DNA of 64,000 nt from an uncultured Ectothiorhodospiraceae bacterium (GTDB lineage: Bacteria; Pseudomonadota; Gammaproteobacteria; SZUA-152), in assembly GCA_964401355.1 (NCBI GenBank), contig CAYNYJ010000002.1, positions 6,116 to 70,115 on the forward strand, written 5' to 3'. Position numbers and translations under genes: made by a program. This document shows, piece after piece, positions 9,728-38,395 of the stretch. Positions within the stretch are counted from its first letter, which is position 1. The number at the start of each line of letters is the position of its first letter. The notes under the pieces were generated by a model. It was not told the DNA's origin. It saw only the letters and a list, made by a program, of their open reading frames with translations, and made no database searches.

Positions 9728-9780
9728 GGTTCCCTCCCGTGTGCGTATTGCTGCAAACGATGATTTTTTTTGCAGAATAG

Positions 9781-9802
9781 CTGCACTTTTCCTTAAGTGC
9801 AG
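9781..9802. promoter_or_regulatory. 8-bp inverted repeat CTGCACTT-N6-AAGTGCAG in the 5' region of the lod gene string
   Basis: Read directly from sequence. It lies upstream of the MKQPTQ start on the minus strand. Confidence 0.3.
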
Positions 9803-10095
9803 CATCTTTTACATCAAGTGATCACAGTGGTCAATGCTGCCTTGGCTTTTTTGTATATTTTTCCAGTAGGTGCGTTATTTTCGAAACTACTGTCATTATA
9901 AATGATAGCGATAGTTTCAAATTGACAGCCGGTTTGGTGGTAGCGAATGTCAATATCTTCGCCAGGTTTCTGGGTTTTTCACGTTGCTGTTGCGGAACCT
10001 TGGAGGTCGGTTTTCGTATTGTGGCATACGTGCTGAAGGGACGTTTTTGAAGCGTTGTTTTTAGGGAGCCTCCGATCTATTCATGAACTCGTATC

Positions 10096-11024: not shown

Positions 11025-11214
11025 GGCAATACGCCTTGCGTTCAAATGGATGTCTTTAGTATAAGCTGTGAGCCGCAATAGCCCAATTTCTATGTTGTAT
11101 TCTAAATATTAGAATTTGCTTATATTTGGAATGCTGCTATGCTTTCGATTCCCGTTTTTTGGCTCACGTCGCCAGCGACGGGTGTATCCGTATCCATTGA
11201 CCAGGAACAGCTTT

Positions 11215-12306: not shown

Positions 12307-12307
12307 T

Positions 12308-15538: not shown

Positions 15539-15656
15539 GTTATCCCTCCACAGAGATATCGCGGTCGTTGATAAAAGATGTGAATATTTGTATTACTTCA
15601 ATTGATTGCTACTATCTGTAGCAATCTCACACGCAGTATGGAGTAATAAAACGACT

Positions 15657-16568
15657 ATGGCTGATCGCAGATTACAGGTATTTCACAGCGTCGCGCGCTT
15701 GTTGAGCTTTACCAAAGCCGCCGAATCGCTGCATATGACTCAACCTGCCGTCACCTTTCAAGTGCGTCAGCTGGAAGAGCATTTCAACACCCGCCTATTT
15801 GATCGCACCCACAACAAGATCAGCCTCACTGAGGCGGGGGAATGCGTGTATGCCCGTGCCGAGAAGATCTTCGAGATCTACGATGATTTGGAAAACAGTG
15901 TGCGCGCCCTCACCGGCGAGATCAGTGGGGTATTGATCCTGGGTGCCAGTACCACCATCGCCGAATACATGTTGCCGGCCCTGTTGGGCGATTTCAAAGA
16001 AAAGTACCCCGACGTCAACATTCGCCTCAAGGTGTCCAATACCGAAGGTATCGTCACCATGGTGGAAAATAATGTGATTGATCTGGGCGTGGTGGAGGCT
16101 CCAGTCACCAATAAAAATCTGGCTGTGGAAGCCTGTCGTACCGACCGTTTGGTCGCTATTACTCCGCCCGGCCATGACCTGGCGAAGGCCGGTAAAATTC
16201 CGGTGCGGGCCATCGCCGATTATCCTTTCATCTTGCGTGAAGAGGGTTCCGGTACTCGTGAAGTGATTGTCGATTATCTTAAAGAAGCCGGTGTCGATCC
16301 GGCCTCACTCAATGTGATTATGGAATTGGGTAGCCTGGAGGCGCTGAAGGGAGCGGTCGAGGCTGGCATCGGTATCAGCATTATTTCCCGGGCAACGTTG
16401 ATAAAGGAAATTAAACTGGGTTCTCTGGAAGTTATAGAGCTGGATCCACCCCTGGAGCGGCCGTTTTCTTTTGTCCACCAGAAACACAAATTCCGTCAAC
16501 GTGCCATGGATGAGTTACTGGAATTTGCGCGTAAATATTGTGAGACTCATCAAGGCATTGAAGAATAG
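15657..16568 (+). CDS. LysR-family transcriptional regulator
   Basis: N-terminal helix-turn-helix LQVFHSVARLLSFTKAAESLHMTQPAVTFQVRQLEE, followed by a LysR substrate-binding fold. Confidence 0.85.
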   Translation: MADRRLQVFHSVARLLSFTKAAESLHMTQPAVTFQVRQLEEHFNTRLFDRTHNKISLTEAGECVYARAEKIFEIYDDLENSVRALTGEISGVLILGASTTIAEYMLPALLGDFKEKYPDVNIRLKVSNTEGIVTMVENNVIDLGVVEAPVTNKNLAVEACRTDRLVAITPPGHDLAKAGKIPVRAIADYPFILREEGSGTREVIVDYLKEAGVDPASLNVIMELGSLEALKGAVEAGIGISIISRATLIKEIKLGSLEVIELDPPLERPFSFVHQKHKFRQRAMDELLEFARKYCETHQGIEE

Positions 16569-19494: not shown

Positions 19495-21255
19495 ATGTCG
19501 GAACAATCCACTAAACCCAGTTGGACGGAGCTGCGCCAGCAGTACTGGCAGTTTGTGCAGTACGCATCGCCTGACAGGCGCTATTTTATGTTAGATATCG
19601 TCACTATCGTGATTTCTGTATTTACTAATACGGCGATGATCTGGTTGATGGGACAGCCGCTGAGCCTGATTCAGGCGGGAGAATATGAGGCCCTGATCGG
19701 CGTGTTGGGTTTGTTTCTCGGCGTCCTATTGGTTAATCAGGCTGCACAAATGGGCGGTGGCTGGTTAACTAACTGGTTGAATCTGCGCTTCATCGGGCGG
19801 GTACGAAATGCCATTATGTCGCGATTGTTAAGTTTGTCTTTTCCGGTAGCGGAGCAGTTGCCACGGGGCGATTTGCTGGCGCGCTTGAGTAATGATGTGG
19901 ATCGTATCAGTGCCATTCTGGTGGGGGCGCGTTTGATGCTGATCTCTCATTTACTGACCCTCACCTTGTATATCGGCATGTTGTTTTGGATCGATGTGCG
20001 TCTGGCGTTGATTGCGTTGGCGACGGTGCCTTTGTTTGTATTACATCAACGATTTTTTTCCGAGCGCAAGCGTCGTGCCACTGAGGGTTTTTTGAAAGCT
20101 AACGGGAAGTTGTTGGCCTTTGAAGAGCAGGGGCTGGCCAATCTGCGTGGCGTCAGTGCCAATGTTGCTGAGAGCCAAGTCACGGCCATGCACCAGAACG
20201 TGTTTGCCCGGACTTTCCGTTGGGCAGTGCGCGAAGGGGGGCTGGAGGTGGCCTTTGGGGTGAGTTTCACGGTGTTGATTTATGGGGTGGGGGTAATGAT
20301 TGCGCTGCTGGGTGTGGACGGCGTGCGCGATGGTTCGCTACCCGTGGGCTTGCTGGTGAGTTTCCTGCTGTACCTGGGGTATCTCACTGTGCCGGTGCGT
20401 GGCCTGGCGGAAATCACCTTTCAGTACGTCGGTAATGTACCCGCTACGCAGCGTATTCTGGAAATTATGAATGCCCAGCCTGCGGTGATGGACAACAGTG
20501 CGACAGCATTGGTCGTCAAAAAAGGGCGAATTGACATCGAAGCCCTGTCTTTTGCCTATCCCGGCGGAGAGAGCGTGTTGCACCACGCGCAATTGACGAT
20601 TCAGGGCGGCGAAACTGTGGCCTTGGTTGGGCCCAGTGGTTCGGGTAAATCCACCTTGGTCGCCTTGCTGCTGCGCTTTTATGATCCACAGCAGGGACGT
20701 ATTTTGGTGGATGAACAGGATTTACGCGATGTGAGCATTGCCTCGGTGCGTCAAAACATAGCAGTGGTGTGGCAGCAACCTTTTGTGCTCAACGATACGA
20801 TTCGTGCTCATCTGCGGATGGCCAAACCGGATGCCACCGAGCTGCAGATTATTGAAGCTTGTCAACGTAGCCATGCGTGGGAATTTATTGAGACCTTGCC
20901 GGCAGGGCTGGACTCCGTGCTGGGTGCCGGTGGTACGGAACTGTCTGGTGGCCAAAAACAGCGTCTGGCCATTGCTCAGGCTTTTTTGCGTGATGCGCCG
21001 ATCCTGATTCTGGATGAAGCTTCATCAGCGCTAGACAGCCAGTCTGAGCAGGTTATTGTGCAGGCGTTGGACGCATTACGTGCAGATCGCACGACATTAT
21101 TGATTGCGCATCGCCATTCGTCGATTCGCTCAGCGGATCGGGTGGTTTATTTTGAGGCTGACGGCACGCTCACCGTAGGCCGACACGATGAACTCATGGC
21201 GCAGCATCCGCAGTACCGCGAGGCTGTGCAATGGCAAACGACAGAACACGAGTGA
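19495..21255 (+). CDS. ABC transporter ATP-binding/permease fusion (MsbA-like exporter)
   Basis: An N-terminal 6-TM domain is followed by Walker A GPSGSGKST, the ABC signature LSGGQKQRLAIA and Walker B ILILDEA. Confidence 0.85.
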   Translation: MSEQSTKPSWTELRQQYWQFVQYASPDRRYFMLDIVTIVISVFTNTAMIWLMGQPLSLIQAGEYEALIGVLGLFLGVLLVNQAAQMGGGWLTNWLNLRFIGRVRNAIMSRLLSLSFPVAEQLPRGDLLARLSNDVDRISAILVGARLMLISHLLTLTLYIGMLFWIDVRLALIALATVPLFVLHQRFFSERKRRATEGFLKANGKLLAFEEQGLANLRGVSANVAESQVTAMHQNVFARTFRWAVREGGLEVAFGVSFTVLIYGVGVMIALLGVDGVRDGSLPVGLLVSFLLYLGYLTVPVRGLAEITFQYVGNVPATQRILEIMNAQPAVMDNSATALVVKKGRIDIEALSFAYPGGESVLHHAQLTIQGGETVALVGPSGSGKSTLVALLLRFYDPQQGRILVDEQDLRDVSIASVRQNIAVVWQQPFVLNDTIRAHLRMAKPDATELQIIEACQRSHAWEFIETLPAGLDSVLGAGGTELSGGQKQRLAIAQAFLRDAPILILDEASSALDSQSEQVIVQALDALRADRTTLLIAHRHSSIRSADRVVYFEADGTLTVGRHDELMAQHPQYREAVQWQTTEHE

Positions 21256-21664
21256 GCCGTTGCGGGAAACCGCAGTGATTGCCACTATCCATATTAAATG
21301 TTTGAGTTTTGCTGGTTAGCAGACGCTCCCCCCTCTTTACTATTTGCCCCTTCTTGCCCGGTGACGTCTATGGCAAGTGGTGGTTGCGACAGTTATCATT
21401 ATTGTATATAATTTAATCAGATTCAATGAGAAGGGTCGTAAGCAGTGTCGAAAATCTGACGCCTCGAATCGTGCACCCTAAGATCAAAATCGTACAGTTG
21501 ATGACGTATTGAACAACCGTGCAGGCGATGTGACCGCAGAATTTAATTTCTCTCTCAGTGAGGTTGACTGAAAATACTATCAGCAAGGGCGTTGGCCATG
21601 GGCTTATTCAGAGCCGTGGTGAGTGTGACTTTTTAATCCAGGTATTTTTGGTGCTGTGAGCGTC

Positions 21665-21781
21665 ATGCGCCGCTCGGTTATTAGCTCTTATGTCGACGGT
21701 ATCTCTGCGGGCTTTGCTGCGATAAATTTTTCTACCGGTGGCGTTGCCAACGGAGCTTCTGTCCTGGTCTGTGAAACGTAA
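21665..21781 (+). CDS. Candidate small peptide (38 aa: MRRSVISSYVDGISAGFAAINFSTGGVANGASVLVCET), a possible scaffold/precursor peptide for the downstream island
   Basis: ORF hand-translated from sequence. It lies about 180 bp upstream of the pqqD-like gene, has a Gly/Ala/Ser-rich C-terminal half ending in Cys-Glu-Thr, and only a weak ribosome-binding site. Confidence 0.2.
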   Translation: MRRSVISSYVDGISAGFAAINFSTGGVANGASVLVCET

Positions 21782-21882
21782 TGCCGTGTTTTTAAATGTT
21801 TGTATGTGTCGTGTCTGCGGTGCTCAACAGAGAAAAATCATATTGATATCCTCTTTTTTCAGCGAAAAATAGCGGGACAGTG

Positions 21883-21933
21883 ATGTTTAAATTCTTGCTG
21901 TCATATGGATGCCATATAAAAGTACAAAACTAA
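21883..21933 (+). CDS. Candidate micro-ORF (16 aa: MFKFLLSYGCHIKVQN) immediately upstream of the pqqD-like gene
   Basis: Hand-translated. It ends 30 nt before the PqqD-like start. By position it is analogous to pqqA in pqqA-D operons, but it lacks the PqqA E-x3-Y motif. Confidence 0.15.
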   Translation: MFKFLLSYGCHIKVQN

Positions 21934-21962
21934 ACGACTAAATATTTAAGGAGTATTGAACC

Positions 21963-22259
21963 ATGGAAGTCAATGCCAACACGGCTATTAACAATTTGCC
22001 AATGCAAGCGGCATTTTTGGATAATCGTTATTTGCAACATTTAGCCATTAGTGACAACGGTTTTGTCTTTGATCCCACCACAGGCCAAAGTTTTACCATG
22101 AATGAGATTGGCGTTGAATTGCTTCGCTTGTTTCAACAAGAAAGCAATATCGACACCATTGTGAGCTTGCAATATAAAAAATATAAAGTCGATACACAGG
22201 AAATTGAACGAGACATCGTGGAATTTGCCAGTAGTCTCAATCGACATTTTTATCGATGA
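21963..22259 (+). CDS. PqqD-family protein (RiPP recognition element / peptide chaperone)
   Basis: TMNEIGVELLRLFQQESNIDTIVSLQ...ERDIVEFASSL aligns with Klebsiella PqqD (LNETAAAILELVDGRRDVAAIIAEL...DDDVVEFLQ). The product is 98 aa with a strong AAGGAG ribosome-binding site. Confidence 0.7.
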   Translation: MEVNANTAINNLPMQAAFLDNRYLQHLAISDNGFVFDPTTGQSFTMNEIGVELLRLFQQESNIDTIVSLQYKKYKVDTQEIERDIVEFASSLNRHFYR

Positions 22260-23320
22260 GCAGCGTATTAACGATGAACATAACTGTTGCTATAACGGGG
22301 ATGAATTCTCAACCCGACAACCCCGGGCCTGGGTTGGCTGTTGCCCGGTGTTTAAAGGAGTCTGCGGAATTTAACGGTCGAATTATCGGTCTGGGTTACG
22401 ATGCGTTGGATGCAGGAATTTACCATAGCGAATACTGTGACGCAGGTTATTTATTACCTTACCCATCCAGCGAAAGCTTTGAACATGTTGACCGATTGCA
22501 ATCAATTCACGAAAAGGAACACATTGACGTATTGATTCCCTGTCTGGATTCGGAGATGCCCGGGATGATTCGTTTGCTTCCCTTGTTTGAAAAGATGGGG
22601 ATAAAAACCTGCCTGCCAACGTTGGAACAGCTGACAATGCGTAATAAAAATCGCTTGTCGGAATTGCTTGGCGACGGAGAAATGTCCTATCCCGAATCAA
22701 TTGATATCATCAATGTTGAATTTTTTCAAGGCTGTGAAAAGCAGGGTTGGACATATCCGTTTGTCGTAAAGGGCGTATTTTACGACGCAAAAATTGTTCA
22801 TAACATTGCGCAGGGTATTGCCGCATTTAACGCAATTTCTACTCAATGGGGTTTTCCGATAATTGTTCAGAAGCTCGTGCGTGGGCAGGAATACAACGTC
22901 GTCGCATTAGGTAATGGAGAAGGTGGCCTGGCGGGTATGGTTATGATGAAAAAAATGATACTGACCGAAAAAGGAAAGGCCAGTGCTGGAGTCAGTGTTT
23001 ATGATGAAGGCCTGCATCGGGTCTGCCTTGAAGTCATGAAAACACTGCGTTGGAAAGGGCCGATAGAATTCGAAGTGATGCGTGACAAACTTGGTAAGTA
23101 TCACCTTATCGAGATTAATCCCAGATTTCCGGCTTGGGTATATTTAACTGCTGGGGTGGGACAAAACCTCCCCATCAAATTGTTGAAGCTTATAGCCGGT
23201 GAGTCTATATCTGAGCTTCCTTCAACAAAAGCTGGGGTTTTGTTTATTCGGCACGCAATGGATTTAATAGTGACGATTGCCTCATTTGAGGCGGTCGCTA
23301 TTGAAGGTGGAACATCATAG
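22256..23320 (+). CDS. ATP-grasp family ligase
   Basis: YHLIEINPRFPAWVY is the ATP-grasp Mg/ATP motif (compare IEVNPR). PFVVKGVFYDAKIV is a central-domain lysine motif. The start overlaps the pqqD-like stop (ATGA). Confidence 0.7.
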   Translation: MSSVLTMNITVAITGMNSQPDNPGPGLAVARCLKESAEFNGRIIGLGYDALDAGIYHSEYCDAGYLLPYPSSESFEHVDRLQSIHEKEHIDVLIPCLDSEMPGMIRLLPLFEKMGIKTCLPTLEQLTMRNKNRLSELLGDGEMSYPESIDIINVEFFQGCEKQGWTYPFVVKGVFYDAKIVHNIAQGIAAFNAISTQWGFPIIVQKLVRGQEYNVVALGNGEGGLAGMVMMKKMILTEKGKASAGVSVYDEGLHRVCLEVMKTLRWKGPIEFEVMRDKLGKYHLIEINPRFPAWVYLTAGVGQNLPIKLLKLIAGESISELPSTKAGVLFIRHAMDLIVTIASFEAVAIEGGTS

Positions 23321-23417
23321 TCGTCGTTTTCGTTCTATTTGTCAGTTTGATGCCCGAATCCAGCGAGTTTCGTTAGAGAAAGAAGAATTTAATATTTTAT
23401 TTTTATAGGTGTGTTTA

Positions 23418-24902
23418 ATGAAAAATAATATTTCGCAACAAGAAGGGCAAGGCCAGGCAGAAATCACTTGGAGTAAGCCATCAATACTTCCATTGAAAGA
23501 TGGGACTATTAATAAGTTTGGTTCCAGGCCGTATGCAGAGACGCAGAGCGAGGTCGATGGTGTTGTCATCAATGATCTAATTGAAAAATATGGTTCGCCG
23601 CTTTTCGTCATTTCCGAAAAGAAGCAGCGTGATAATGCGCGCCGAATTCAGCGAGCATTCAGTTCGCGTTATCCCCATGTCCAATTCGGTTGGTCCTACA
23701 AAACAAATTACCTGGATGCTGTCTGTAATGTTTTTCATCAGGAAGGATTGTGGGCAGAAGTTGTTTCTGAATTTGAATACCAAAAAGCAAGAAATCTAGG
23801 GGTTCCCGGGCATAAAATAATCTTTAATGGTCCACATAAATCCAGGGGGATTCTGGAACAGGCCATTGAAGAAGGTGCGCTCATTCATATTGATCATCTG
23901 GATGAACTATTTCTTATCGACACGATTTCAGCTGAAAAGAAAAAAATGGTTTCCGTTGCTATTCGTCTCAATTTCGATACGGGTTATACCGAAAATTGGG
24001 GTCGCTTCGGATTCAATATTGAATCGGGCCAAGCCTTTGATGCCGCAGTGCATATTTCGAATAGCCAACACCTTGAACTGGTTGGGCTGCATAGCCATAT
24101 TGGCACGTTCATTACTGATGGTCGTGCCTATGTCAGTCAAATTAAAATAATGTGCAAGTTTATGGATGAAGTGGAATTAAAAACAAATTGTTCCATTGAT
24201 TACATTGATATTGGCGGGGGCTTGGCTTCGATGAATTCTCTGCAAGGAGCTTATTTACCGCCAGAACAATATATTCCCAGTATTGAACAATATGCGACGT
24301 TAATTTGTGATGCCTTGTTAAAGGAGACGCGGTCACGCAATGCAAATAAAGATAAAGGTTTGTTGTTGATACTGGAAACAGGCCGGGCAATGATTGATGA
24401 TGCTGAAGTATTGATAACTTCCGTCGTTGCCAATAAGCAATTGCCGGATGGTCGTCGTGCTTCAATTATGGATGCTGGTTTAAACCTGTTATTTACCAGT
24501 TTTTGGTATGACCATAAGATAGTGCCGACCCGGGAATTGCCGGGAGTGGCAGAAGAAACCGTGCTTTATGGGCCGCTGTGCATGAACATCGATGTGGTGA
24601 GAAAAAGCATTAAATTGCCACCGATGAAAATAGGAGAGCCCATGGTGATCAAACAGGTCGGTGCTTATAACAATACACAATGGATGCAATTTATTGAATA
24701 TCGTCCGAATGTAGTCATGGTTCATGAAGATAAATCTGTGTCGATTGTCAGAGAGGCCGAAAATTTGCAAACAATGATTGCACAGGATCGGTTACCGGCT
24801 CATTTATCTGACCCTTTCGTAGAGGTTTCCAAAGGTAAGGCAGCGCTTGTCGCTGAGGCGACGTTGACGGAAGTTGTTTTGGTTGAGTCCAATTCTACGT
24901 AA
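23418..24902 (+). CDS. PLP-dependent decarboxylase, Orn/DAP/Arg decarboxylase family (fold type III, diaminopimelate-decarboxylase-like)
   Basis: SPLFVISEKKQRDNARRIQRAF...QFGWSYKTNYLDAVCNVFHQEGLWAEVVSEFEYQKA...IIFNGPHKS contains the PLP-lysine region and the conserved Gly-rich PLP-phosphate-binding motif IDIGGGL. Confidence 0.75.
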   Translation: MKNNISQQEGQGQAEITWSKPSILPLKDGTINKFGSRPYAETQSEVDGVVINDLIEKYGSPLFVISEKKQRDNARRIQRAFSSRYPHVQFGWSYKTNYLDAVCNVFHQEGLWAEVVSEFEYQKARNLGVPGHKIIFNGPHKSRGILEQAIEEGALIHIDHLDELFLIDTISAEKKKMVSVAIRLNFDTGYTENWGRFGFNIESGQAFDAAVHISNSQHLELVGLHSHIGTFITDGRAYVSQIKIMCKFMDEVELKTNCSIDYIDIGGGLASMNSLQGAYLPPEQYIPSIEQYATLICDALLKETRSRNANKDKGLLLILETGRAMIDDAEVLITSVVANKQLPDGRRASIMDAGLNLLFTSFWYDHKIVPTRELPGVAEETVLYGPLCMNIDVVRKSIKLPPMKIGEPMVIKQVGAYNNTQWMQFIEYRPNVVMVHEDKSVSIVREAENLQTMIAQDRLPAHLSDPFVEVSKGKAALVAEATLTEVVLVESNST

Positions 24903-27111
24903 ACCAGGGGCTGTTCCATTGCTAAAGACGAACTGGTGTCATTTTAAGGATATTGCCAAAGCTTATTCCGGCATTTTATTTTTGGAGCACCCCTTGGTTG
25001 GGGTATTGTTCATTGCACTGACTTTTTGGTCGCCGTTAACGGGTATGGCTGGACTGTTGTGCGCGCTGACAAGTATGTTGATATGTGTATTTTTAAAGCT
25101 GCCCCATATTGGTAGCAAAGCACATATTCTGAATAGTGTGTTGACGGGCTTATCACTGGGTGCCTTGTTTCAACTCAGTGGCCAGGCTTGGGCGTTTGTT
25201 ATTGTTGGCGGATTACTCACGACATTTTTGTCTATTCTGATGGCTGATATATTGTGGCGTCGAACAGGGCTGCCAGCCGTGTGTCTTCCCTTTATTGTGA
25301 GTGCTGCAATATTATCCCTGGTGGTCCGGGAATATGTACCGAGCACCGACTTTAGCGCGATTGGCTGGTTGACTGATGTCTGGATTCATCCCTGGGTGGA
25401 TTTATTTTTTAGAACCTTGTCCGCAACCCTATTTTCACCAAATCCTGTGATTGGGTTATTGGTGTTCATCGCTATCATTATTCAATCCCGTTACCTGGGG
25501 TTGCTAGCGATTGCTGGTTTTTCGTTGGGACTTTTTTTACTTAATATACTGTCTGGCAGTCATCCGACAGAATTTTATGTGTGGACGTGTTTTAACTTTG
25601 TTCTTACCGCATTGGCCGTGGGTGGAATTTATACTGTGCCTGATCGGAGCAGTTTTATTTATGCCATGTTTGGCGTATCGGTATCGGTATTCTTTGTTAT
25701 CGTGATACAAGATTTGATGCTGGTATATCATTTACCGGTCATGGCATTACCTTTTGTGGCCGCAACTTTATTGTGCATTGCTGTGCTTCAAAGACGTAGC
25801 AGTATGGAATCGCCGTGGTTGTGTGCCACTCCGGGGCTGCCGGAAAATGATTATGAGCAAAGACGCTTGGCGCGTACGCGATGTGGCGAACCTAACAGCA
25901 TCCCCTTGCTGTTACCTTTTTACGGCACCTGGAATGTGTATCAGGGTTTTGATGGCCGCCACACTCATAAGACGCCCTGGAATCATGCCGTTGATTTTTA
26001 CATTACTGAAAAAGGCTTAAGTTATTGTGCTCAAGGCTTTCGACTTGAGGATTACTATTGTTTTGGATTACCGATTATATCGCCGGTCTATGGTGAAGTG
26101 ATAGCAACCGCGGATTCGGTGTCTGACAATATTCCAGGCGCAGTTAACGTGGATGATAATTGGGGTAATTTTATCCTTATTTATTTGAGCACCGGGCATT
26201 GCATTATGTTGGCGCATCTCAAGCATTTAAGTATTAAAGTTAATGTGGGTGATCAGGTGACACCAAAAACGGAGTTGGCCGCTTGTGGTAATTCGGGGCG
26301 CTCACCGCAACCCCATTTACATATTCATTTGCAGAAAGATGCAGAGATTGGAAGTCCGACACAGTTATTCCACTTTTGCAGTGTTCTGGAAAATGTGGGG
26401 ATACAAAATACACACTATAAGCTGATCAGCAGACCCGTGGATAACGTCAATATTCAGGCCGCAGCTCATGCTCGGGGGTTGTCCAATATTCACCAACACC
26501 TCCCCGTGGGTCGCTATTTCACTTACAAGCTAATAGATCCGGAGACCAACGCCAGCAGCGTACGTCGCCTATTGGTGGAGGTGACGTTAATGGGCCAGTT
26601 CCGTTTGGTAAGTGACTCTGGTGCCAGTTCCGCTTTTGAGGAAGTCAATGGTGTACTTGCCTTTTATGACAGGCAAGGTCCAGCAGATCAATTATTGGAT
26701 ATGTTGTTACTGTCCTATGGTTTGACGCCATTAACAGAACTTGCGCAACAATGGCAGGATTCACCGTCGGTAAAATTGTTGCCGTTGCAGAGTGGGGAAA
26801 AAATATTGCTGGCATTCCGTTTCATTTTGGGTGTTGGGCTTGAGAGCCAATATCAGCGTCAGTGGGATTCTGCAAAGAATATGTGGGTACAACGCAGTAC
26901 TCATACATTGCGAATTGGCCCGCGTACTTTGGTGGCCGAAGCCGTTATAGAATTGGACCGGGCATTTGTCAGTAATGATATGACGTTGTCATTTAACGGT
27001 TGCACCTGGCGTGCACAATTATTGAATAATGGTTTAATAAAAGATCATGGTATACCGGGCTGGCGTAAACAGCATGTTGATGACGCTAGCTCAAACTTGT
27101 CGACGGTTTAG
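24874..27111 (+). CDS. Fusion protein: N-terminal urea-transporter (UT)-like polytopic membrane domain + C-terminal M23 (LytM/lysostaphin-type) metallopeptidase-like domain
   Basis: N-terminal YSGILFLEHPLVGVLFIALTFWSPLTGMAGLLCALTSML follows the UT-family pattern, and there are about 10 predicted TM helices. C-terminal WNHAVDF ... GNSGRSPQPHLHIHL matches the M23 HxxxD / HxH zinc-ligand motifs. Confidence 0.6.
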   Translation: MFWLSPILRKPGAVPLLKTNWCHFKDIAKAYSGILFLEHPLVGVLFIALTFWSPLTGMAGLLCALTSMLICVFLKLPHIGSKAHILNSVLTGLSLGALFQLSGQAWAFVIVGGLLTTFLSILMADILWRRTGLPAVCLPFIVSAAILSLVVREYVPSTDFSAIGWLTDVWIHPWVDLFFRTLSATLFSPNPVIGLLVFIAIIIQSRYLGLLAIAGFSLGLFLLNILSGSHPTEFYVWTCFNFVLTALAVGGIYTVPDRSSFIYAMFGVSVSVFFVIVIQDLMLVYHLPVMALPFVAATLLCIAVLQRRSSMESPWLCATPGLPENDYEQRRLARTRCGEPNSIPLLLPFYGTWNVYQGFDGRHTHKTPWNHAVDFYITEKGLSYCAQGFRLEDYYCFGLPIISPVYGEVIATADSVSDNIPGAVNVDDNWGNFILIYLSTGHCIMLAHLKHLSIKVNVGDQVTPKTELAACGNSGRSPQPHLHIHLQKDAEIGSPTQLFHFCSVLENVGIQNTHYKLISRPVDNVNIQAAAHARGLSNIHQHLPVGRYFTYKLIDPETNASSVRRLLVEVTLMGQFRLVSDSGASSAFEEVNGVLAFYDRQGPADQLLDMLLLSYGLTPLTELAQQWQDSPSVKLLPLQSGEKILLAFRFILGVGLESQYQRQWDSAKNMWVQRSTHTLRIGPRTLVAEAVIELDRAFVSNDMTLSFNGCTWRAQLLNNGLIKDHGIPGWRKQHVDDASSNLSTV

Positions 27112-27144
27112 CGATTGAACGGTTTATTTTTCTGAACAATAAAA

Positions 27145-28524
27145 ATGGAATTGGAGTTCATGTTTTACCCATCGATGACTATAAAAATGTACTGGTCCAT
27201 TTCTTCAGTCGGGTTTACGATAGCGTTATTGTTGCTCACAGTTAATCCAGCTCTGGCAATGGACATAGAAGAGATTTATGAACTGGCGCTGGAAACCGAC
27301 CATGTGATTCGGAAGGCAACAGCGATTCGTGCCGGTTCGCAAGAAGCTGTTCAGCAAAGCAGAGCCAGATTCTGGCCGAAAATGTCCGCCAGTACCCTTT
27401 ATACGCAAAACTCACAAGATCGCACTGTGCATGATTTTACCAATACCGTGCTTCTAAATAGTAAGCCTGAGTTTGCCAGTAGCGGCTACAGCATAAACAT
27501 TACCCAGCCCCTGTTTGATTACGATGCGATTGTTAATAATCAACAAGCGTGGGCGACACATGAATTGGCAGATGTTCAATACAATGAAACGGGTCATTTC
27601 CTGGTGCTGCGGGTTATTACCGCTTACATGGGGGTATTGTCTGCCAAACAAGGAATTCACTATCGCGAACTGGAAGTACAGGCGCTAAAAAAACAACTTG
27701 AGCGAATGGAGTACCGCTTGAATTTGGGTATTAGCGCAAAAATTGATGTCAGTGAGGCACAGGCTGGGTATGACCAGGCGTTGGCGAATCGCACCAGTGC
27801 CAGCATCCGTCTGTCTATTACCAATGAAGCCTTACGTCAAATTACGGGTCAGTTGCACGATAATCTTGATCCGCTCCAAGTTGCAGCATCTTTCAATATG
27901 CCAAATCCCAGTAATCTGACTTTTTGGATTAAAATGGCACATGAAAATAATTATCAACTTCAAATTGCACAATCCCAGCTTAAGCTGGCACAGATCGGGA
28001 TTAAAAAACAGGGTGCCTCACGTTTTCCTTATCTTTCACTGATAGCCACGTATAATTATTACAATAATCTGGCATTAGACTACGCTGGCGTTGAATTGGA
28101 AACGGGTTCCATTACGGCACGTTTGGATTGGGATTTCTATCAAGGCGGGTTGGTCAGTTCCCGCATTCGTCAAGCGAAATATTATAAAGATCAGGTTGAT
28201 ATTTCTCTGCAACAGCAGAAAAGTCTGGTGGAGCGACAAGTCCGTGATGCGTATTACATCCTGGTGGGTGGAGTGAATCGTATCGGTGAGTTGGAACAAT
28301 CCATAAAATCGCAAAAAGTGCTGTTGGAAGCAAACAAGGCTGGCTATGAAACGGGAGCCAGAACCAGTTTTGATGTTTTGAATGCGCGGACAAATCTATA
28401 CACTTTACGGAGAAAGCTGGCGCAAGCTCGACATGACCATGTATTACATCATGCTATTTTGAAATACCGCGCAGGCATGCTTGTGGTTGAGGACTTGGCA
28501 TACATCAACCAAAGCTTGGAATAG
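27145..28524 (+). CDS. TolC-family outer-membrane efflux channel
   Basis: N-terminal signal peptide, two repeated alpha-helical coiled-coil/beta-barrel halves of TolC/OMF topology, and a C-terminal YRAGMLVVEDL characteristic of outer-membrane factors. Confidence 0.7.
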   Translation: MELEFMFYPSMTIKMYWSISSVGFTIALLLLTVNPALAMDIEEIYELALETDHVIRKATAIRAGSQEAVQQSRARFWPKMSASTLYTQNSQDRTVHDFTNTVLLNSKPEFASSGYSINITQPLFDYDAIVNNQQAWATHELADVQYNETGHFLVLRVITAYMGVLSAKQGIHYRELEVQALKKQLERMEYRLNLGISAKIDVSEAQAGYDQALANRTSASIRLSITNEALRQITGQLHDNLDPLQVAASFNMPNPSNLTFWIKMAHENNYQLQIAQSQLKLAQIGIKKQGASRFPYLSLIATYNYYNNLALDYAGVELETGSITARLDWDFYQGGLVSSRIRQAKYYKDQVDISLQQQKSLVERQVRDAYYILVGGVNRIGELEQSIKSQKVLLEANKAGYETGARTSFDVLNARTNLYTLRRKLAQARHDHVLHHAILKYRAGMLVVEDLAYINQSLE

Positions 28525-28671
28525 GGTGCTTCAAATTTAGCCAATATTTCCCTGTGGTCTTGTTCGTGTTGGCGCGGCACGGCGAATTCATGACTCAGTT
28601 TCGGTCTGTTCGAAGACAGCAGGGGCTAATAACAGAAGGGTAGTCAATTCTCGGGTACTACATGACAGCGA

Positions 28672-28860
28672 TTAGATTTGTTCAGAAGCCTGCACCAGCC
28701 TGTTTTTTATTGTATTAAAAAGCTGTACGAACACTTTGTCTAGGTGTTCCTTGTTCATATTTTTCGGCTTGGTGTGCCCCCGTTGACGTAAGGCCATTGT
28801 GTTTTTGAGCTTGGAAATGTGACTGGAGTGCAGAGCCCGTTCACCGGAAGAAAAATACAC
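28672..28860 (-). CDS. Small basic hypothetical protein (62 aa)
   Basis: ORF only; Lys/His-rich. Confidence 0.25.
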   Translation of the reverse strand: MYFSSGERALHSSHISKLKNTMALRQRGHTKPKNMNKEHLDKVFVQLFNTIKNRLVQASEQI

Positions 28861-29341
28861 AGAAATATTTCTTGAGGCATGACGGGCTAGCGAGTTGCGC
28901 GAGTCTTTTTTCAGGATTTTATTATCTATATCCGGGGCTATTCAAGGAATTAAGTCGCTGCAAATACGCTAATTTTGGTGTCTTCGTGGGGAAACTGATT
29001 TATTGCCTGCTTGCTGAAAATAGCGCGGGAAACGGCTGCCGTGGATTCGTGCGGTATACCAAAATGAGGGGCTGCGCGGAGTATAATTGGGTTAACGTTG
29101 AGTTTAAAATCGGTTGTTCAAAAACAGGCATTCCAAAAAAAACAAGAAAGGAACCCTATAAAACTGCTGATAGAGTTCCTTTCCATCTTTTTTACGTGGG
29201 GTTTTAAGCCACATAGGTGTAAAGCTACATGCGAAAAGCAGAATGTAGGTTACACAGGCGTTGCTTTCGCAACAACATCCGTTACCAGATGCAGACTACA
29301 CGAGTGTGTAGCAGTATAGTTTGTTTAGCTTGAGAGTCGGC

Positions 29342-29491
29342 TTACATGCCGCCGCCCATGCCTCCAGCGCCCATACCGGCACCCATGCCGCCGCCCATGC
29401 CGCCGCCCATGCCGCCCATACCCATTCCGCCCATGCCGCCTCTGCCACCCATGCCGCCTCGACCACCACCCATTCCACCCATTCCACCCAT
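29342..29491 (-). CDS. Gly/Met-repeat peptide (49 aa: [49 protein letters not shown]; 59 aa if the upstream ATG at 29521 is used)
   Basis: Hand-translated on the minus strand; it is missing from the ORF track because it is under 60 aa. A strong GGAGG Shine-Dalgarno sits 8 nt upstream of the internal ATG. The peptide is composed almost exclusively of (G)GM repeats. Confidence 0.5.
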   Translation of the reverse strand: MGGMGGMGGGRGGMGGRGGMGGMGMGGMGGGMGGGMGAGMGAGGMGGGM

Positions 29492-30103
29492 GATAGAACC
29501 TCCAAAGTAGTTGTATTGCATTTACATGGTTGGCCAACGTCATGTACAGGATGCCCAGTATTTTGATGCTGACTAAAATACCGTGGTATCAACAGTACGT
29601 GCAGTTAGCACGAAATCAAGCAGAAACAACTCTGGTTGATCCCATTGTCTGCCACAACTGCGGCGGACAACGTCGAAAAAAGTAACAGAGTGATCATTTA
29701 TTGTCAATTTAAAGGATGGAGGTCAGCAGTGAAAATAAGGGTTGTAACTTATTGATTTTTAAAGATGATAAGAATTTTTCTTTGTAGATATCGCTGATGA
29801 TACTGAGTTAAATAGCAATATTACGCATAAGAAATAGTCTGTATAGGTAATTTATTACCGCAAACATGTTTTTTGGTAATTAATAACAATATATTGTAAG
29901 CGTTAATGTTCGCATGTCTGGCGAGTATTTCAGAAAAAGTGATTTATGCATCAACCGGGTGCATTGTGATGTGATTGATGCGGACATTTTTGCAAGCCCG
30001 TGTTATGTGCTTGTTTTATGACATAATCGTTTCGCCGATGTGTTTGTTAACGGACGCTTAACGGTGGCATTGAGCCAAAAAAATAAAAAAAGGATTTTGT
30101 CAT

Positions 30104-33100
30104 ATGTTTATGCTTGCGGCCGCATTTTTACTCTTGTCAGGTATTGCCAGTCTGACTTATCAGGTGGTTTGGGTCAGGTTGCTAGGACTGAGTATGGGGT
30201 CGACCAGCGCTTCGATCAGTACCGTGTTAGCGGCGTTCTTTTTGGGCTTGGCTCTGGGGAGTTACCTGGCTGAGCGTATAACCCGAAATCGTATCAATGA
30301 TCTCAGAGCGTATATTGTGCTGGAACTGATCATTGGTCTGTCGGGTCTGGCCTTGCTTCCCATTTTGTTGAATCTCGATGCAATCATGGCGGCTACCCCG
30401 GCGTTGGGTGCAACCATTCCCATGAAATTTGCGGTGACCACCGTGTTGTTGCTGATTCCCACGGTGTGCATGGGGGCCACTTTCCCTGTTATGGCATCGT
30501 TGCTCATTCGTCGTAAAGATGAAGTGGGTGTCCGTGTCAGCCAACTTTATAGTTTAAACACGGCAGGTGCGGTACTGGGGGCGGCTCTGGCGGGTTTCTT
30601 TTTTGTGCCGAACTGGGGTTTGGATGGCGCGGTTTATATTGCCTTTTCGTTTAATTTATTGATTGTAGTACTGGCTATTTATCTCAACCAAAAAATTTCC
30701 TTGCCGCCAATCGAAGTGTCGACGGTTGAAGCCAAATCGGCTGGTGCTGCTGTCTCAAACTCAATAACGGAAGAAGCCCCTTTGCGTGGACGGGCGCTGA
30801 TAGTGTTGTTTGCCACTGGCCTTGTTGCCATCGCAACGGAAGTCGGCTGGACCAAGTACCTGTCGATTTTTACGGGAACCACTATTTATGGTTTTGCCGC
30901 GATACTGACGATATTTCTCACGGGTATCGCTGCAGGTTCATGGGCGATTAAATCATATATTGAGCGTATGCAACGGCCAGAATTGTGGATGGCCTTCGGG
31001 CTGGTATTGTTGGGTAGCTCGTTATTGTTGACGCGCGCGGGTTTGACCTGGGTCCCCGCCATTTATCAAGCAATGAACCATTTCCCGGTAGAGCCATGGT
31101 TGAAGCACGGGGTGAAATACACTTTTGTGTTTGTGTTGCTGTTTCCTCCGACGTTTTTGTTTGGTGCATTGTTTCCAATAAATCTGAGGCTTTACTGCGG
31201 CAATTTGCAGGGTATACGGGCACGTATTGGCAAGGCTTATGCGGTGAATACGGTCGCCAGTATTTTTGGTTCGATTATGGCGGGTTTTTGGTTGATCCCA
31301 TATTACGGCACCGATGTGTTGCTAACGGTTATGGCGCTGGTGTTATTGGTATTGCCGTTGTTGTTTGTGCCGGTGCTAACGACACCTGTGGCGAAGCTGT
31401 CGATTACCGCATTCGCAGTTCTGGCGCTGTTGAGCAGTGGGTTGTTACCGCATCTGAGTTACAAGGATATGATCACTTCGGTGCAATATGACGGTGAGTC
31501 TTATGCTGGCCAAGAACCCAAATTTTTGTTTTTGAAGGAGGGTAAGGCGGGCGTCATTAGTATGATCACTTATAACGACCGGCACGTGAGGCTGCAAAAC
31601 AATGGTCTGAATGAATCTTTCATTGATCTTGAAGATGAAAATAATGTGTTACTGGTTGAAAGCTTGTTGGGTCTGCTGCCGTACATGCTGCATGACGATC
31701 CCAAGTCGGCTTTTGTGGTGGGTTTTGGGGGTGGCATTACCACCAAAGCATTGACCTTTACAAAATTGGAATCCATTCGTGTGGTCGAGCTGGAACCGGC
31801 GGTGATCGACGCTGGGCGAGCGATCATCGGTGGCCGAGAAATTCTTGCGTTGCAAGACCCGCGAGTGACGCTCACGCTGAATGATGCGCGTAATACCTTG
31901 TTAACCGAAAGCACAAAATACGACATTATTGCCTCGCAGCCTTCACACCCTTGGCTGGCGCGTGCGTCGAATATCTTTACCAAAAACTTTTTTGAGCTGG
32001 TTAAGTCACGGCTCAATGACGGCGGTATTTACGGTCAGTGGGTGAATTTGTTTCATATGGATGCTACTACTCTGAAATCACTGTTACGCGCTTTCTACGA
32101 AGTGTTTCCGCATGGCATGACCTTCGCCAATCTTGAGAGTGGAGATTTCATGATGTATGGCTCTGTTTCGCCGATAATTTTTGATTTTGCAAAAATTGAA
32201 CAACGTTTGAATGAACCCAAAATAAAGACGGCACTGAATTATCACGGTATTTATTATGCCCGGGATTTAATGTGGTACTTTGCGCTCTCGCGTGATCAGG
32301 CGTTGGCGGCATCGATGGATGTGCCGGCTAACACCGATACCAATATTCTTTCTGAAGTACGGTTGTCGGCTATTGATAATAAACCGTCGCCCGAAGAAAG
32401 CCCTTATAAATTCTTAATCGATAATTACACCTTTAATGTGCGCCCTTACTTTGCTACGGATGAGGCTGCGGATCGTATTTACCAGTTGGGTACCTATTTT
32501 CTGGTTGAGAAGAATGAGCAGGACATTGCGCAGTATTCGGCGGATCAATTAAAAGAAATTGATCCGGTCAAGGCGCGTGGCATTGAATATGAAAAACATT
32601 GGCATAATTTTGAATATGATGAAACGGATGCATTGTATATACAGCATGAACAGTGGCCGGATCGCACTCACATGCAACAGGCTTTGGCATTGGTGGATCG
32701 GAATCGTTATGACGAGGCCACGGCCGTGCTACCCCGTGTGGAAGTGGAAGGAATGCGTCGTATTCTGGCAGCACGGCTGTTATTTGATCAGCAGCGTTTT
32801 GATGAGCTTGTGGCCGTGGATACACAATATGATGCCGAAAAACTCTGGCGTTTGTCGGCCTTGGCGAGAAAGGATTTGATCACTGCGGGCAGTGAACTGC
32901 ATGCGTTGGTGCAGCGAGTTTCACCCGGGCTTCCGCAGCTGCGGGTTTTGGCGGGATACTACGGGGTGATTAATGACGATAAACAACTGGACCGGGTGGC
33001 GCGTTTGATTGTTCAGCAGCAAAACAAAGAAATTGAGCGTATTCAGCAGTTATTGACTGATGCAATAGAGGCTGAGCAAGTGCAGTATTCACAAAATTTG

Positions 33101-33268
33101 CTCAAGCGTATTGAGATGCTTAACCCGGAAGAGAACTACAAACTGAAAGAATTGCGAGGCAAAGTCGCGAAGCTTGTTGTTTCTCCGATCCAGGAAAATG
33201 ATACCGGCGATCAAGAGGTCACGATAAATAACGGTGAAAAGCACACGCTCTCACTATACTCAAGTTAG
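30104..33268 (+). CDS. Fused polytopic membrane domain + spermidine-synthase-like (SpeE-fold aminopropyltransferase/methyltransferase-like) domain + C-terminal helical repeat region
   Basis: The N-terminal half (about 460 aa) has many TM helices. VVGFGGGITTKAL...IRVVELEPAVIDAGR...YDIIASQPSHPWLARASNIFTKNFFELVKSRLNDGGIYGQWVNL is a spermidine-synthase-like Rossmann core. The product is 1054 aa. Confidence 0.65.
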   Translation: MFMLAAAFLLLSGIASLTYQVVWVRLLGLSMGSTSASISTVLAAFFLGLALGSYLAERITRNRINDLRAYIVLELIIGLSGLALLPILLNLDAIMAATPALGATIPMKFAVTTVLLLIPTVCMGATFPVMASLLIRRKDEVGVRVSQLYSLNTAGAVLGAALAGFFFVPNWGLDGAVYIAFSFNLLIVVLAIYLNQKISLPPIEVSTVEAKSAGAAVSNSITEEAPLRGRALIVLFATGLVAIATEVGWTKYLSIFTGTTIYGFAAILTIFLTGIAAGSWAIKSYIERMQRPELWMAFGLVLLGSSLLLTRAGLTWVPAIYQAMNHFPVEPWLKHGVKYTFVFVLLFPPTFLFGALFPINLRLYCGNLQGIRARIGKAYAVNTVASIFGSIMAGFWLIPYYGTDVLLTVMALVLLVLPLLFVPVLTTPVAKLSITAFAVLALLSSGLLPHLSYKDMITSVQYDGESYAGQEPKFLFLKEGKAGVISMITYNDRHVRLQNNGLNESFIDLEDENNVLLVESLLGLLPYMLHDDPKSAFVVGFGGGITTKALTFTKLESIRVVELEPAVIDAGRAIIGGREILALQDPRVTLTLNDARNTLLTESTKYDIIASQPSHPWLARASNIFTKNFFELVKSRLNDGGIYGQWVNLFHMDATTLKSLLRAFYEVFPHGMTFANLESGDFMMYGSVSPIIFDFAKIEQRLNEPKIKTALNYHGIYYARDLMWYFALSRDQALAASMDVPANTDTNILSEVRLSAIDNKPSPEESPYKFLIDNYTFNVRPYFATDEAADRIYQLGTYFLVEKNEQDIAQYSADQLKEIDPVKARGIEYEKHWHNFEYDETDALYIQHEQWPDRTHMQQALALVDRNRYDEATAVLPRVEVEGMRRILAARLLFDQQRFDELVAVDTQYDAEKLWRLSALARKDLITAGSELHALVQRVSPGLPQLRVLAGYYGVINDDKQLDRVARLIVQQQNKEIERIQQLLTDAIEAEQVQYSQNLLKRIEMLNPEENYKLKELRGKVAKLVVSPIQENDTGDQEVTINNGEKHTLSLYSS

Positions 33269-33330
33269 GTATTTTTCTGTGTTAATGTCGCGTCGTTTAC
33301 TGATTCGCTTGCGAGCCTAAGGAGGTGGGC

Positions 33331-33768
33331 ATGAGTGATTATCAACATATCCTGTGTGCAGTTGATTTGAGTGAGGAAAATATTGTGGTGGCATCCCGTG
33401 CTGTCGAGCTGGCCAATATTTATCAGGCGCAACTCAGCGTGTTGCATGTGGTGGAATATATTCCTATCGATCTCGCCAATGAGTTGGTGTTACCGCAACA
33501 GCAAGAAATTGAGCAGCAACTTTTGACTCAGGCGAAGCAACATCTTACGGTTTTAACCGAGCGGATTGATGCACCGTCAGTGAAAGAAGTGGTCGTGCAG
33601 GGTTCGACAAAATCAGAAATTATTGAGTATGCGCAAGACCACCACATCGATCTGATTATTCTTGGGCGACATGGTCGTCATGGGCTTTCGCGTTTGTTGG
33701 GTTCTGTGGCAAATTCGGTCTTACATCATGCCCCGTGTGATGTGCTGGCCGTGCGTGTTGGGGCTTAA
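33331..33768 (+). CDS. uspA: Universal stress protein (UspA family)
   Basis: HILCAVDLSEE...LSVLHVVE...DLIILGRHGRHGLSRLLGSVANSVLHHAPCDVLAV is the classic UspA ATP-binding-fold signature. A GGAGG ribosome-binding site precedes the ATG. Confidence 0.85.
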   Translation: MSDYQHILCAVDLSEENIVVASRAVELANIYQAQLSVLHVVEYIPIDLANELVLPQQQEIEQQLLTQAKQHLTVLTERIDAPSVKEVVVQGSTKSEIIEYAQDHHIDLIILGRHGRHGLSRLLGSVANSVLHHAPCDVLAVRVGA

Positions 33769-34580: not shown

Positions 34581-35201
34581 ATGGGAGTGAAGAACCGTTT
34601 AATCAATCCGAAAGCACGACGTCGAGGCTTGCTGGGTGTCGCTGGGGCTGGGCTTATGTGTCTGGCAATGTTGCTGATGTCGTCAGTGGCGATGGCAGTT
34701 AAATATGATGTGGTGCCGCCGGTCGGAACGCATCAGGGGGAGGATGTGCCTCAGCCCATCGAGTTTCCTCATAATGTTCACGTTAAAGATAATGACATTA
34801 ACTGCATGTACTGCCATACCTATGCGCGACGCAGCGCAGTGGCCGGTATTCCTCCGACCAGTAAATGCATGGGCTGCCACAAGGTGATTGCGACAGACAA
34901 GCCGCGCATCCAGAAGCTCACCAAATACTGGCAGGACAAAATATCACCCGCTTGGAAGAAAGTGCACGACCTGCCGGACTTTGTGCATTTTACCCACGAG
35001 AAACATTTGAAGACCTTGGTGTTTGATCGGGAGTTTCCGGTTGAAGATGTGAAGGAAGTTTGTGCCTTTTGTCACGGTGATGTGGAAAATATGACGGTAG
35101 CGCACAAAGTGAAACCGTTGAATATGGGCTTTTGCGTTAATTGCCATATTGCGAACAAAGAACTGGGTGCCCCGGGCGACTGCTGGAAGTGCCACAAGTA
35201 A
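34581..35201 (+). CDS. actA: Alternative Complex III subunit ActA (pentaheme cytochrome c)
   Basis: Five CXXCH motifs (CMYCH, CMGCH, CAFCH, CVNCH, CWKCH) in 206 aa with an N-terminal signal anchor. It is the first gene of the act operon. Confidence 0.8.
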   Translation: MGVKNRLINPKARRRGLLGVAGAGLMCLAMLLMSSVAMAVKYDVVPPVGTHQGEDVPQPIEFPHNVHVKDNDINCMYCHTYARRSAVAGIPPTSKCMGCHKVIATDKPRIQKLTKYWQDKISPAWKKVHDLPDFVHFTHEKHLKTLVFDREFPVEDVKEVCAFCHGDVENMTVAHKVKPLNMGFCVNCHIANKELGAPGDCWKCHK

Positions 35202-35264
35202 TCGTCGCGCAAATACAAAGGTGTTAACGATGAGCAAGCGAATTAATAGAGTGGAATTACGACT

Positions 35265-37481: not shown

Positions 37482-37483
37482 TT

Positions 37484-38326: not shown

Positions 38327-38395
38327 GGCTTTTTATCTCTCGATTTCACGTTCGGTTACAACCAGAGCCGTCAAAAAGATTAAGGTGATATAACA

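Follow-up and report, generated by a model that had tools for sequence, protein, structure and literature searches.

Urea transporters (UT) and M23 metallopeptidases have each been well studied in a single role, the former in the permeation of urea and the latter in the extracytoplasmic cleavage of peptidoglycan and other peptides; to our knowledge, every M23 or LytM domain characterised so far works extracytoplasmically. Here we describe a gene that joins the two, located on the forward strand at positions 24874..27111 of a 64,000-nucleotide stretch of DNA from an uncultured Ectothiorhodospiraceae bacterium (the whole stretch is referred to below as the window). The protein that it encodes, which we call UT-M23, belongs to an existing family that is uncharacterised and mislabelled: a 2026 survey of UT evolution lists M23 among the domains found C-terminal to bacterial UT modules, without function or context (PMC12998343), and this domain-architecture survey was all that our literature searches for the gene combination returned. 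What is new here is a conserved operon around the gene, the loss of the urea-recognition residues, an invariant and non-canonical M23 site, and the predicted placement of that site in the cytoplasm. With a probability of about 0.4, we propose that UT-M23 is the inner-membrane part of an envelope-spanning operon, conserved across distant lineages, that makes and releases a small nitrogenous product, an amine or amide.

The fusion protein and its family

The longest open reading frame of the UT-M23 gene comprises 745 codons. In an alignment of close homologues, these begin at about query residue 16-19, and a TTG codon at 24919 has AGGGG ahead of it, for which reasons the true start is probably TTG 24919 and the product 730 residues long. 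The initial annotation had described the gene as co-oriented and overlapping with that of a pyridoxal 5'-phosphate (PLP) decarboxylase. The shared strand and the tight packing of the two genes are retained after correction of the start, but with a start at 24919 the 29-nucleotide overlap would be an artefact of taking the longest frame.

We modelled the protein with AlphaFold2 from a 50-sequence alignment (mean predicted local distance difference test, pLDDT, 83.6), and compared the parts of the model with the PDB using Foldseek. The UT-fold membrane domain (residues 27-306; 24952..25791) is recognised by Pfam UT (PF03253; TC 1.A.28) at residues 27-304 with an E-value of 2.1e-41 and 142 bits against a cut-off of 25, over profile positions 4-290 of 292. 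It has ten transmembrane helices in two inverted halves, and matches dvUT, the urea channel of Desulfovibrio vulgaris (3k3f), with a target template-modelling (TM) score of 0.83; together with dvUT, the human, bovine and zebrafish UTs are also matched, at target TM scores of 0.75-0.85, and a profile of the UT-M23 family aligns full-length with all solved UTs (E 1e-19 to 1e-44). The M23 metallopeptidase domain follows at residues ~343-505 (25900..26388). Sequence profiles detect only its second half (Peptidase_M23, PF01551, at residues 400-490; E 1.3e-9, 38.6 bits against a cut-off of 28.7), and by structure this middle part matches the M23 domains of StM23, EnpA, DipM, lysostaphin and ShyA at target TM scores of ~0.7. 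The rest of the protein is a C-terminal beta-rich domain with its core at residues ~540-722 (26389..27039). From the Pfam and Foldseek matches to both folds we conclude that the fusion of a UT-like and an M23 domain in one reading frame is real, as initially read from the sequence. The N-terminal part is UT-like, with a Pfam score far above cut-off and a ten-helix fold; the C-terminal half of about 400 residues, in which M23 motifs had originally been noted, does contain that domain, but consists of two modules.

The fusion had also been called unusual, which in the sense of rare does not hold. A word-indexed search yielded more than 120 full-length proteins with both UT and M23 domains (700-760 residues, 43-84% identity), and an exhaustive HMMER search with the M23 and C-terminal part only reached, at E <= 1e-30, 453 clusters (50% identity), almost all of them proteins of 700-750 residues in which the match starts near residue 325. 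Fusion to a UT domain is thus the normal state of the family and not a one-off event. With one genome scanned per species, relatives turned up in 250 species. Gammaproteobacterial carriers include Halieaceae (with the cultured Congregibacter variabilis), Methylomonas, Crenothrix, Thiotrichaceae and Ectothiorhodospiraceae; other carriers are Zetaproteobacteria (with the cultured Mariprofundus sp. EBB-1), Magnetococcales, Nitrospirota, Geothrix, Desulfobulbaceae, Sideroxydans and Melainabacteria. The combination as such had, moreover, already been recorded in the survey cited above (PMC12998343). A few short matches were considered as standalone proteins made of the M23 and C-terminal domains; they begin inside the tenth transmembrane helix or lack a start methionine and are probably truncated gene calls, one protein (P0175) being ambiguous in this respect.

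A UT pore that has lost its urea relay

The channel scaffold is well preserved: the motif LPxx-x-PF (LPxx[T]xPF) and the motif NxxLxG each occur twice, and the pore aromatics F36 and F240 are invariant in the family. In UTs, the urea recognition motif and hydrogen-bond relay is formed by Q(Pb)-T(5b)-T(5a)-Q(Pa) (PMC11589576). At the Q(Pa), T(5a), Q(Pb) and T(5b) positions the window protein has G33, C137, A184 and A291, in this order. The same departure is seen throughout the 50 aligned sequences, where the Q(Pb) position holds A, S or V and the Q(Pa) position A, N, T, G or S (Gln in 0/50 at either), T(5b) is replaced by Ala in 49/50, and T(5a) by S, C, V or A. The residues around the lost relay stay invariant, which suggests a pore that is under strong constraint but is lined differently, with fewer polar groups. 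Against TIGR03441 (Yut), the equivalog of bacterial urea transporters, the protein scores only 74.7 bits, with a cut-off of 274.6. Since the relay residues are lost and this score lies so far under the cut-off, we do not regard the domain, as judged from its sequence, as an established urea channel. The function of a channel for small polar solutes, which the initial annotation had taken over from UTs, does not follow directly here, the urea-recognition residues being absent.

Public records label most of these proteins "urea transporter" or leave them unnamed. Taking the label at face value, UT-M23 could be a plain channel for urea or a small amide, in which a cytoplasmic M23 domain and the C-terminal domain only gate, anchor or oligomerise the protein and the neighbouring genes are unrelated. 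While the intact UT fold and scaffold motifs, and the label itself, fit such a channel, we consider it very improbable: all four polar relay residues are replaced and TIGR03441 returns 75 instead of 275 bits, the catalytic residues of the M23 domain are invariant, unlike those of degenerate regulatory LytM domains, and the gene neighbourhood described below is conserved across phyla, with no conserved urease genes nearby.

An invariant, non-canonical M23 active site

Five residues of the M23 domain are the same in 50/50 aligned sequences, namely H365 (codon at 25966-25968), D374 (25993-25995), H448 (26215-26217), H481 (26314-26316) and H483 (26320-26322), all on the forward strand. The HxH motif is supplied by H481-x-H483, and the upstream H448 is the catalytic His in AHL. 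Two zinc-ligand motifs had been proposed at the outset, WNHAVDF and GNSGRSPQPHLH. The second is correct, but the His of the first, H371, is not conserved (His in 36/50 and Tyr in 14/50), and the residue four before the invariant D374, at the first position of an HxxxD motif, is Q, R or N. Given that H371 varies and H365 does not, the first ligand pair is likely H365...D374, that is H-x8-D and not HxxxD. A loop of ~22 residues is inserted after the Asp ligand, C396 and C471 are likewise invariant, and no signal peptide lies ahead of the domain. With a target TM score of ~0.7 and a catalytic set without variation, the domain has the M23 fold, and its active site appears to be intact, as had been assumed.

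For the C-terminal domain (residues ~540-722) no Pfam match was found. It is modelled with a pLDDT of 78 and has 38 invariant columns among 25 sequences; Foldseek finds a weak resemblance to the open barrels of LolA, LolB and LprG (best E 2e-4, TM 0.3-0.4). M23 and LolA-type domains are usually extracytoplasmic. There is, however, a cytoplasmic protein with the LolA fold, VioE, so that a LolA-like fold does not by itself settle the location of this domain.

Orientation in the membrane

The two UT halves are inverted, with five crossings each, and both termini lie on one side of the membrane. In mammalian UTs the Pa half-helix is part of the cytoplasmic urea pocket (PMC11589576). Counted over the 50 sequences, Lys and Arg residues average 9.3 in the loops on the side of the N and C termini and 1.5 in those on the other side, where there are never more than three, and R308, directly after the last UT helix, is invariant. 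UT homology and this strong positive-inside bias lead us to predict a cytoplasmic location for the M23 and C-terminal domains. Two extended relatives bear on the same point. P0262 (1073 residues) continues beyond the C-terminal domain with a hydrophobic segment and two modules resembling TPR200, a tetratricopeptide repeat (TPR) protein of the operon described below, and P0150 (1112 residues) continues with a hydrophobic segment and a domain like those of beta-lactamases and penicillin-binding proteins. Either they are real fusions or they result from read-through of neighbouring genes; a hydrophobic segment ahead of the added domains fits a cytoplasmic C-terminal domain and periplasmic additions.

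Were the C terminus periplasmic instead, the protein could serve in envelope remodelling, with the M23 domain cutting cross-links of peptidoglycan or some other periplasmic peptide. M23 and LytM domains act outside the cytoplasm where they have been characterised, most folds of the LolA/LolB/LprG type are periplasmic, the products of the partner genes are exported, and the two invariant cysteines, C396 and C471, would also be at home there. We nevertheless hold such a role to be decidedly unlikely, because both UT termini lie on the side rich in Lys and Arg (9.3 against 1.5) with the invariant R308 after the last helix, because in P0262 and P0150 a further hydrophobic segment is required before the domains of periplasmic type, and because three cytoplasmic enzymes are strictly co-inherited with UT-M23. 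There is similarly little to recommend its corollary, in which the LolA-like domain would bind a lipid or lipoprotein and the UT-like domain would be an anchor or regulator.

A conserved operon of biosynthetic-type genes

Gene neighbourhoods were examined by gene calls around three distant homologues and by a survey of 84 loci with open reading frames and BLAST. In most of the loci that are long enough, UT-M23 is the fourth of six co-linear genes, in the order PqqD-like protein, ATP-grasp ligase, fold-III PLP decarboxylase, UT-M23, OMP324 and TPR200. The first four are present in every locus of sufficient length, Melainabacteria included, while OMP324 follows UT-M23 in 60 loci and TPR200 in 54. 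The arrangement spans at least six groups at the level of phylum or class (Gamma- and Zetaproteobacteria, Magnetococcales, Nitrospirota, Geothrix, Desulfobulbaceae and Melainabacteria). The tight co-directional cluster with biosynthetic-type enzymes that had been noticed in the window is borne out. OMP324 is a protein of ~320 residues with a signal peptide and a C-terminal aromatic residue (...xW), which looks like an outer-membrane barrel; neither Pfam nor the PDB yielded a relative, even when a profile of the family was used. TPR200, of ~200 residues, also has a signal peptide, together with ordinary TPR matches and a weak match to TPR_Slam (E 1e-3). The Zetaproteobacterial stalk (sfz) cluster, considered as a possible counterpart, is a different gene set, in the description of which urea, ATP-grasp, M23, PqqD and decarboxylase do not appear.

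The PqqD-like gene (21963..22259, forward strand) heads the operon in essentially all complete loci. Its product, of 98 residues, is of the type known as RiPP (ribosomally synthesised peptide with post-translational modifications) recognition element (RRE), matches Pfam PqqD (PF05402) with an E-value of 4e-11 and no NCBIfam model at cut-off, and carries the invariant motif LAxSxxGFxFDPxxG. Its stop overlaps the start of the ATP-grasp gene by 4 nucleotides, and this translational coupling is reflected in the first step of the pathway proposed below, where the ligase is paired with the PqqD adaptor. In Zetaproteobacteria, Magnetococcales and Desulfobulbaceae the PqqD-like protein is fused to an N-terminal TetR-like domain, a hint at a possible further role of the PqqD module in ligand sensing or in regulation of the operon. 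Such TetR-PqqD proteins, of ~265-277 residues with a TetR_N helix-turn-helix and a TetR-like middle part, are encoded for instance at L030:6625-7458, L042:1857-2648, L076:6523-7329 and L050:5342-6139 (locus numbers of the survey).

The ATP-grasp ligase (22256..23320, forward strand; 354 residues) matches Pfam ATPgrasp_Ter (E 5.6e-7) and, under cut-off, NCBIfam PRK12767, described as carbamoyl phosphate synthetase (CPS)-like. Against the PDB, the family profile is closest to 2pn1 (1e-15), an uncharacterised CPS-like protein, followed by the CPS large subunit (3e-11), VanA/Ddl (2e-5) and PylC (1e-3). The fold-III PLP decarboxylase (23409..24902, forward strand) matches Pfam Orn_Arg_deC_N and Orn_DAP_Arg_deC; its start codon is uncertain, homologues having ~470-480 residues. 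Its best NCBIfam match is FslC (232 bits, under cut-off), and its best match in the PDB is the N-citrylornithine decarboxylase FslC (7kh2, E 2e-58), well ahead of diaminopimelate decarboxylases (LysA, 2e-37); BtrK is matched as well. Both FslC and BtrK act on amino acids that are already linked through their side chain by an amide or thioester, the substrate of BtrK being a carrier-bound glutamate.

We looked for a precursor peptide among the small reading frames in the 600 bp upstream of the PqqD gene and in the 1.5 kb that follow the operon, and found none conserved across clades in the 84 loci; the sequence ahead of the PqqD gene cannot be aligned even among members of the window's clade. 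The only recurrent candidate, an upstream reading frame containing LVKVNTLIF, is confined to Zetaproteobacteria, where it lies directly before the start of TetR-PqqD or overlaps it, and more probably represents an operator or promoter element than a gene for a peptide. The stretch, which in one frame reads "...LVKVNTLIF.SPHG", is found at L037:6579-6635, L038:6588-6635 and L042:1794-1850 and in nine more Zetaproteobacterial loci.

The anatomy of the operon would fit uptake and catabolism as well as it fits synthesis and export. The barrel, the TPR protein and the UT-like pore could admit an external amide or ureido compound, to be hydrolysed by a cytoplasmic M23 domain at the channel exit. UT channels are bidirectional and the bacterial ones normally serve uptake, the ATP-grasp protein is closest to CPS-type modules, and genes for a sensor kinase and response regulator often come after the operon. 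Against this, a ligase that consumes ATP and an RRE-type adaptor are typical of biosynthesis, as are the nearest relatives of the decarboxylase, FslC and BtrK, and genes of the urease or allophanate hydrolase type are not conserved nearby (nor are other urea- or ammonia-assimilating genes). We therefore regard uptake as unlikely, and take an equally sceptical view of its extension, in which the decarboxylase and the ATP-grasp enzyme process the resulting pieces.

Surroundings of the operon in the window

In the window, UT-M23 is followed by a gene for a TolC-family outer-membrane channel (27145..28524, forward strand; TIGR01844, 248 bits against a cut-off of 225). The initial annotation had remarked on this neighbour, correctly for the window, but a general link is unsupported. 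TolC directly follows UT-M23 only in the window's own clade (L005-L008, 78-81% identity), OMP324 and TPR200 taking its place in the other clades, and no gene for a membrane-fusion protein lies in the operon or adjacent to it. We therefore did not retain TolC as a general part of the system. A resistance-nodulation-division (RND) pump is encoded ~10 kb upstream (membrane-fusion protein 11116-12306 and AcrB 12293-15538, with a LysR regulator in the region 11116-16568), and could be the real partner of TolC. Genes for AcrB, an outer-membrane efflux protein and LysR also lie just downstream of the operon at one other locus (L001:14764-20269), in partial synteny with the window.

Scans of 21200-30200 for promoters and terminators stayed at background level. 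The G+C content is 0.43-0.45 over the operon, TolC and the next 1.5 kb (22001-30000), with 0.51-0.55 upstream and ~0.49 downstream, a drop that is compatible with an acquired island. After TolC there is a reading frame of 111 codons (28872-29207, forward strand) with no Pfam or NCBIfam match, and the rest of 28525-30100 appears to be non-coding. At 30104-33268 (forward strand) follows a fused protein of 1054 residues resembling the major facilitator superfamily (MFS) and spermidine synthases (NF037959, 138 bits against a cut-off of 40), and after it, at 33325-33768, a universal stress protein. This fused gene, and SpeD/SpeE ~9 kb from the L001 operon, led us to consider a link to polyamine genes, which was dropped since neither recurs across loci.

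In other lineages, the operon is often followed downstream by a sensor histidine kinase and a response regulator (Melainabacteria, L079-L084 at ~12100-14400), and in Zetaproteobacteria (L022, L030, L038, L042) a hybrid kinase of ~900 residues comes directly after TPR200. Farther away in the window, a LodA-like L-lysine epsilon-oxidase is encoded on the reverse strand at 6281-8380 (LodA_N E 7e-55, LodA_C E 1e-36), beside a protein of 456 residues without Pfam match (8435-9805, reverse strand) that may be a LodB-type partner. The forward-strand genes at 34581-39811, for a cytochrome c7-like protein, a molybdopterin oxidoreductase (738 residues), a 4Fe-4S protein and an NrfD-type membrane subunit, resemble a module of the Psr/Phs type or the alternative-complex-III type.

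Discussion

In the scheme that we infer for the operon, including its order of reactions, its direction of transport and the nature of its product, the ATP-grasp ligase and the PqqD-like adaptor would first join a carboxylate to an amino acid in the cytoplasm through the side chain of the latter, forming an amide. The FslC-like enzyme would then strip the free alpha-carboxyl group from the pendant amino acid to give an N-acyl amine, as FslC does with N-citrylornithine and BtrK with carrier-bound glutamate, on which this step is modelled. The M23 domain, placed under the channel on the cytoplasmic face, would serve as a zinc amidase, trimming the product or setting it free, and the UT-fold pore, having lost its urea relay, would pass it to the periplasm. 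In most lineages the orphan outer-membrane barrel OMP324 and the periplasmic TPR200 would complete the export route.

A more specific version would have the UT channel repurposed as the dedicated conduit of an undescribed envelope-spanning pathway shared across phyla, with a cytoplasmic M23 amidase at the channel mouth that releases the small amine or amide. This we put forward only tentatively, and the same holds for the origin of the product in that version, where it would be made by an ATP-grasp ligase with the help of the RRE and by an FslC-like decarboxylase.

Several observations weigh against synthesis and export. No product, substrate, or precursor or scaffold peptide was identified at the operon loci, and OMP324 and TPR200 are absent from the 64-kb window by tblastn. 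The narrow UT pore admits slender molecules only, and sequence does not reveal in which direction a channel conducts. M23 and LolA-like domains normally reside outside the cytoplasm, where C396 and C471 could form a disulfide, and the first zinc-ligand motif is non-canonical, with H-x8-D in place of HxxxD. A role in which the fusion would "process and export" a product, as suggested in the initial annotation, is still the best reading: it is helped by the predicted cytoplasmic M23 domain and by the exported partners in other lineages, and weakened by the failure to find a product or precursor. The probability left over from this and the three alternatives above goes to explanations outside all four.

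The family is of interest since it is large and conserved and departs from both of its parent families, having lost the urea residues of the one and carrying an apparently active domain of the other at a predicted cytoplasmic site. Its operon occurs widely among iron oxidisers, methanotrophs, sulfur oxidisers, magnetotactic bacteria and Melainabacteria. If true, the more specific version above would for the first time assign an M23 domain a catalytic role in the cytoplasm and the UT family a function other than with urea. Finding the product would correct a systematic misannotation as "urea transporter", could possibly reveal a new secreted metabolite or envelope modification in environmental bacteria, and would provide a case from nature in which an enzyme is directly coupled to a channel.

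Comparison with known systems

Set beside the UT/SLC14 channels (dvUT 3k3f, UT-B, UT-A), UT-M23 has in common the ten-helix inverted-repeat fold, the scaffold motifs and the pore aromatics F36/F240, and differs in lacking the polar relay, in ~440 additional residues that are predicted to be cytoplasmic, and in scoring far under the equivalog cut-off. With M23 enzymes of the LytM/lysostaphin type, including the M23A members LasA and beta-lytic protease, it shares the fold, the HxH motif, the catalytic His in AHL and the Asp ligand. In LasA, too, the first His and the Asp lie far apart. What sets the UT-M23 domain apart from known M23 domains is H-x8-D, the ~22-residue loop, the missing signal peptide, its predicted cytoplasmic location and its tethering to a channel.

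The last two genes of the operon, a signal-peptide protein ending in an aromatic residue with a periplasmic TPR protein directly downstream, recall the pairs of outer-membrane barrel and TPR that serve synthase-dependent secretion of polymers (AlgE/AlgK, PgaA, BcsC), and Slam. In contrast to those polymer-export pairs, OMP324 has only ~300 residues, there is no glycosyltransferase or polymerase, and neither OMP324 nor TPR200 occurs in the window. VanA/VanX combine an ATP-grasp ligase with a cytoplasmic zinc peptidase whose active site is lysostaphin-like, and the ATP-grasp profile of the operon weakly matches VanA and Ddl; VanX, however, is a soluble enzyme of family M15, and the operon has no resistance context. 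The RRE pathways for pyrroloquinoline quinone, mycofactocin, pearlins and fosfazinomycin likewise place a standalone PqqD-type RRE beside an enzyme of non-ribosomal type, and a peptidase could excise the product. In fosfazinomycin, the logic of an RRE and a scaffold peptide serves to make a small molecule (PMC13622209). Unlike these pathways, the UT-M23 operon and its flanks yielded no gene for a precursor or scaffold peptide, and the operon has no radical-SAM or LanB-like enzyme.

Rhizoferrin synthesis by FslA/FslC in Francisella and butirosin synthesis by BtrI/BtrJ/BtrK/BtrG are related to the operon through its decarboxylase, which is closest to FslC and also matches BtrK. The operon differs from both in having no non-ribosomal-peptide-synthetase-independent siderophore (NIS) synthetase, acyl carrier protein, or aminoglycoside or siderophore genes; its small protein is PqqD-like and not a carrier with a known attachment site, and the releasing enzyme would be an M23 domain. 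The Btr system employs an ATP-grasp ligase, a small carrier, a PLP decarboxylase that acts on the tethered amino acid, and a final hydrolytic release, and this logic matches the gene set of the UT-M23 operon. The LysW-type carrier pathways, finally, follow a logic that resembles the route proposed here.

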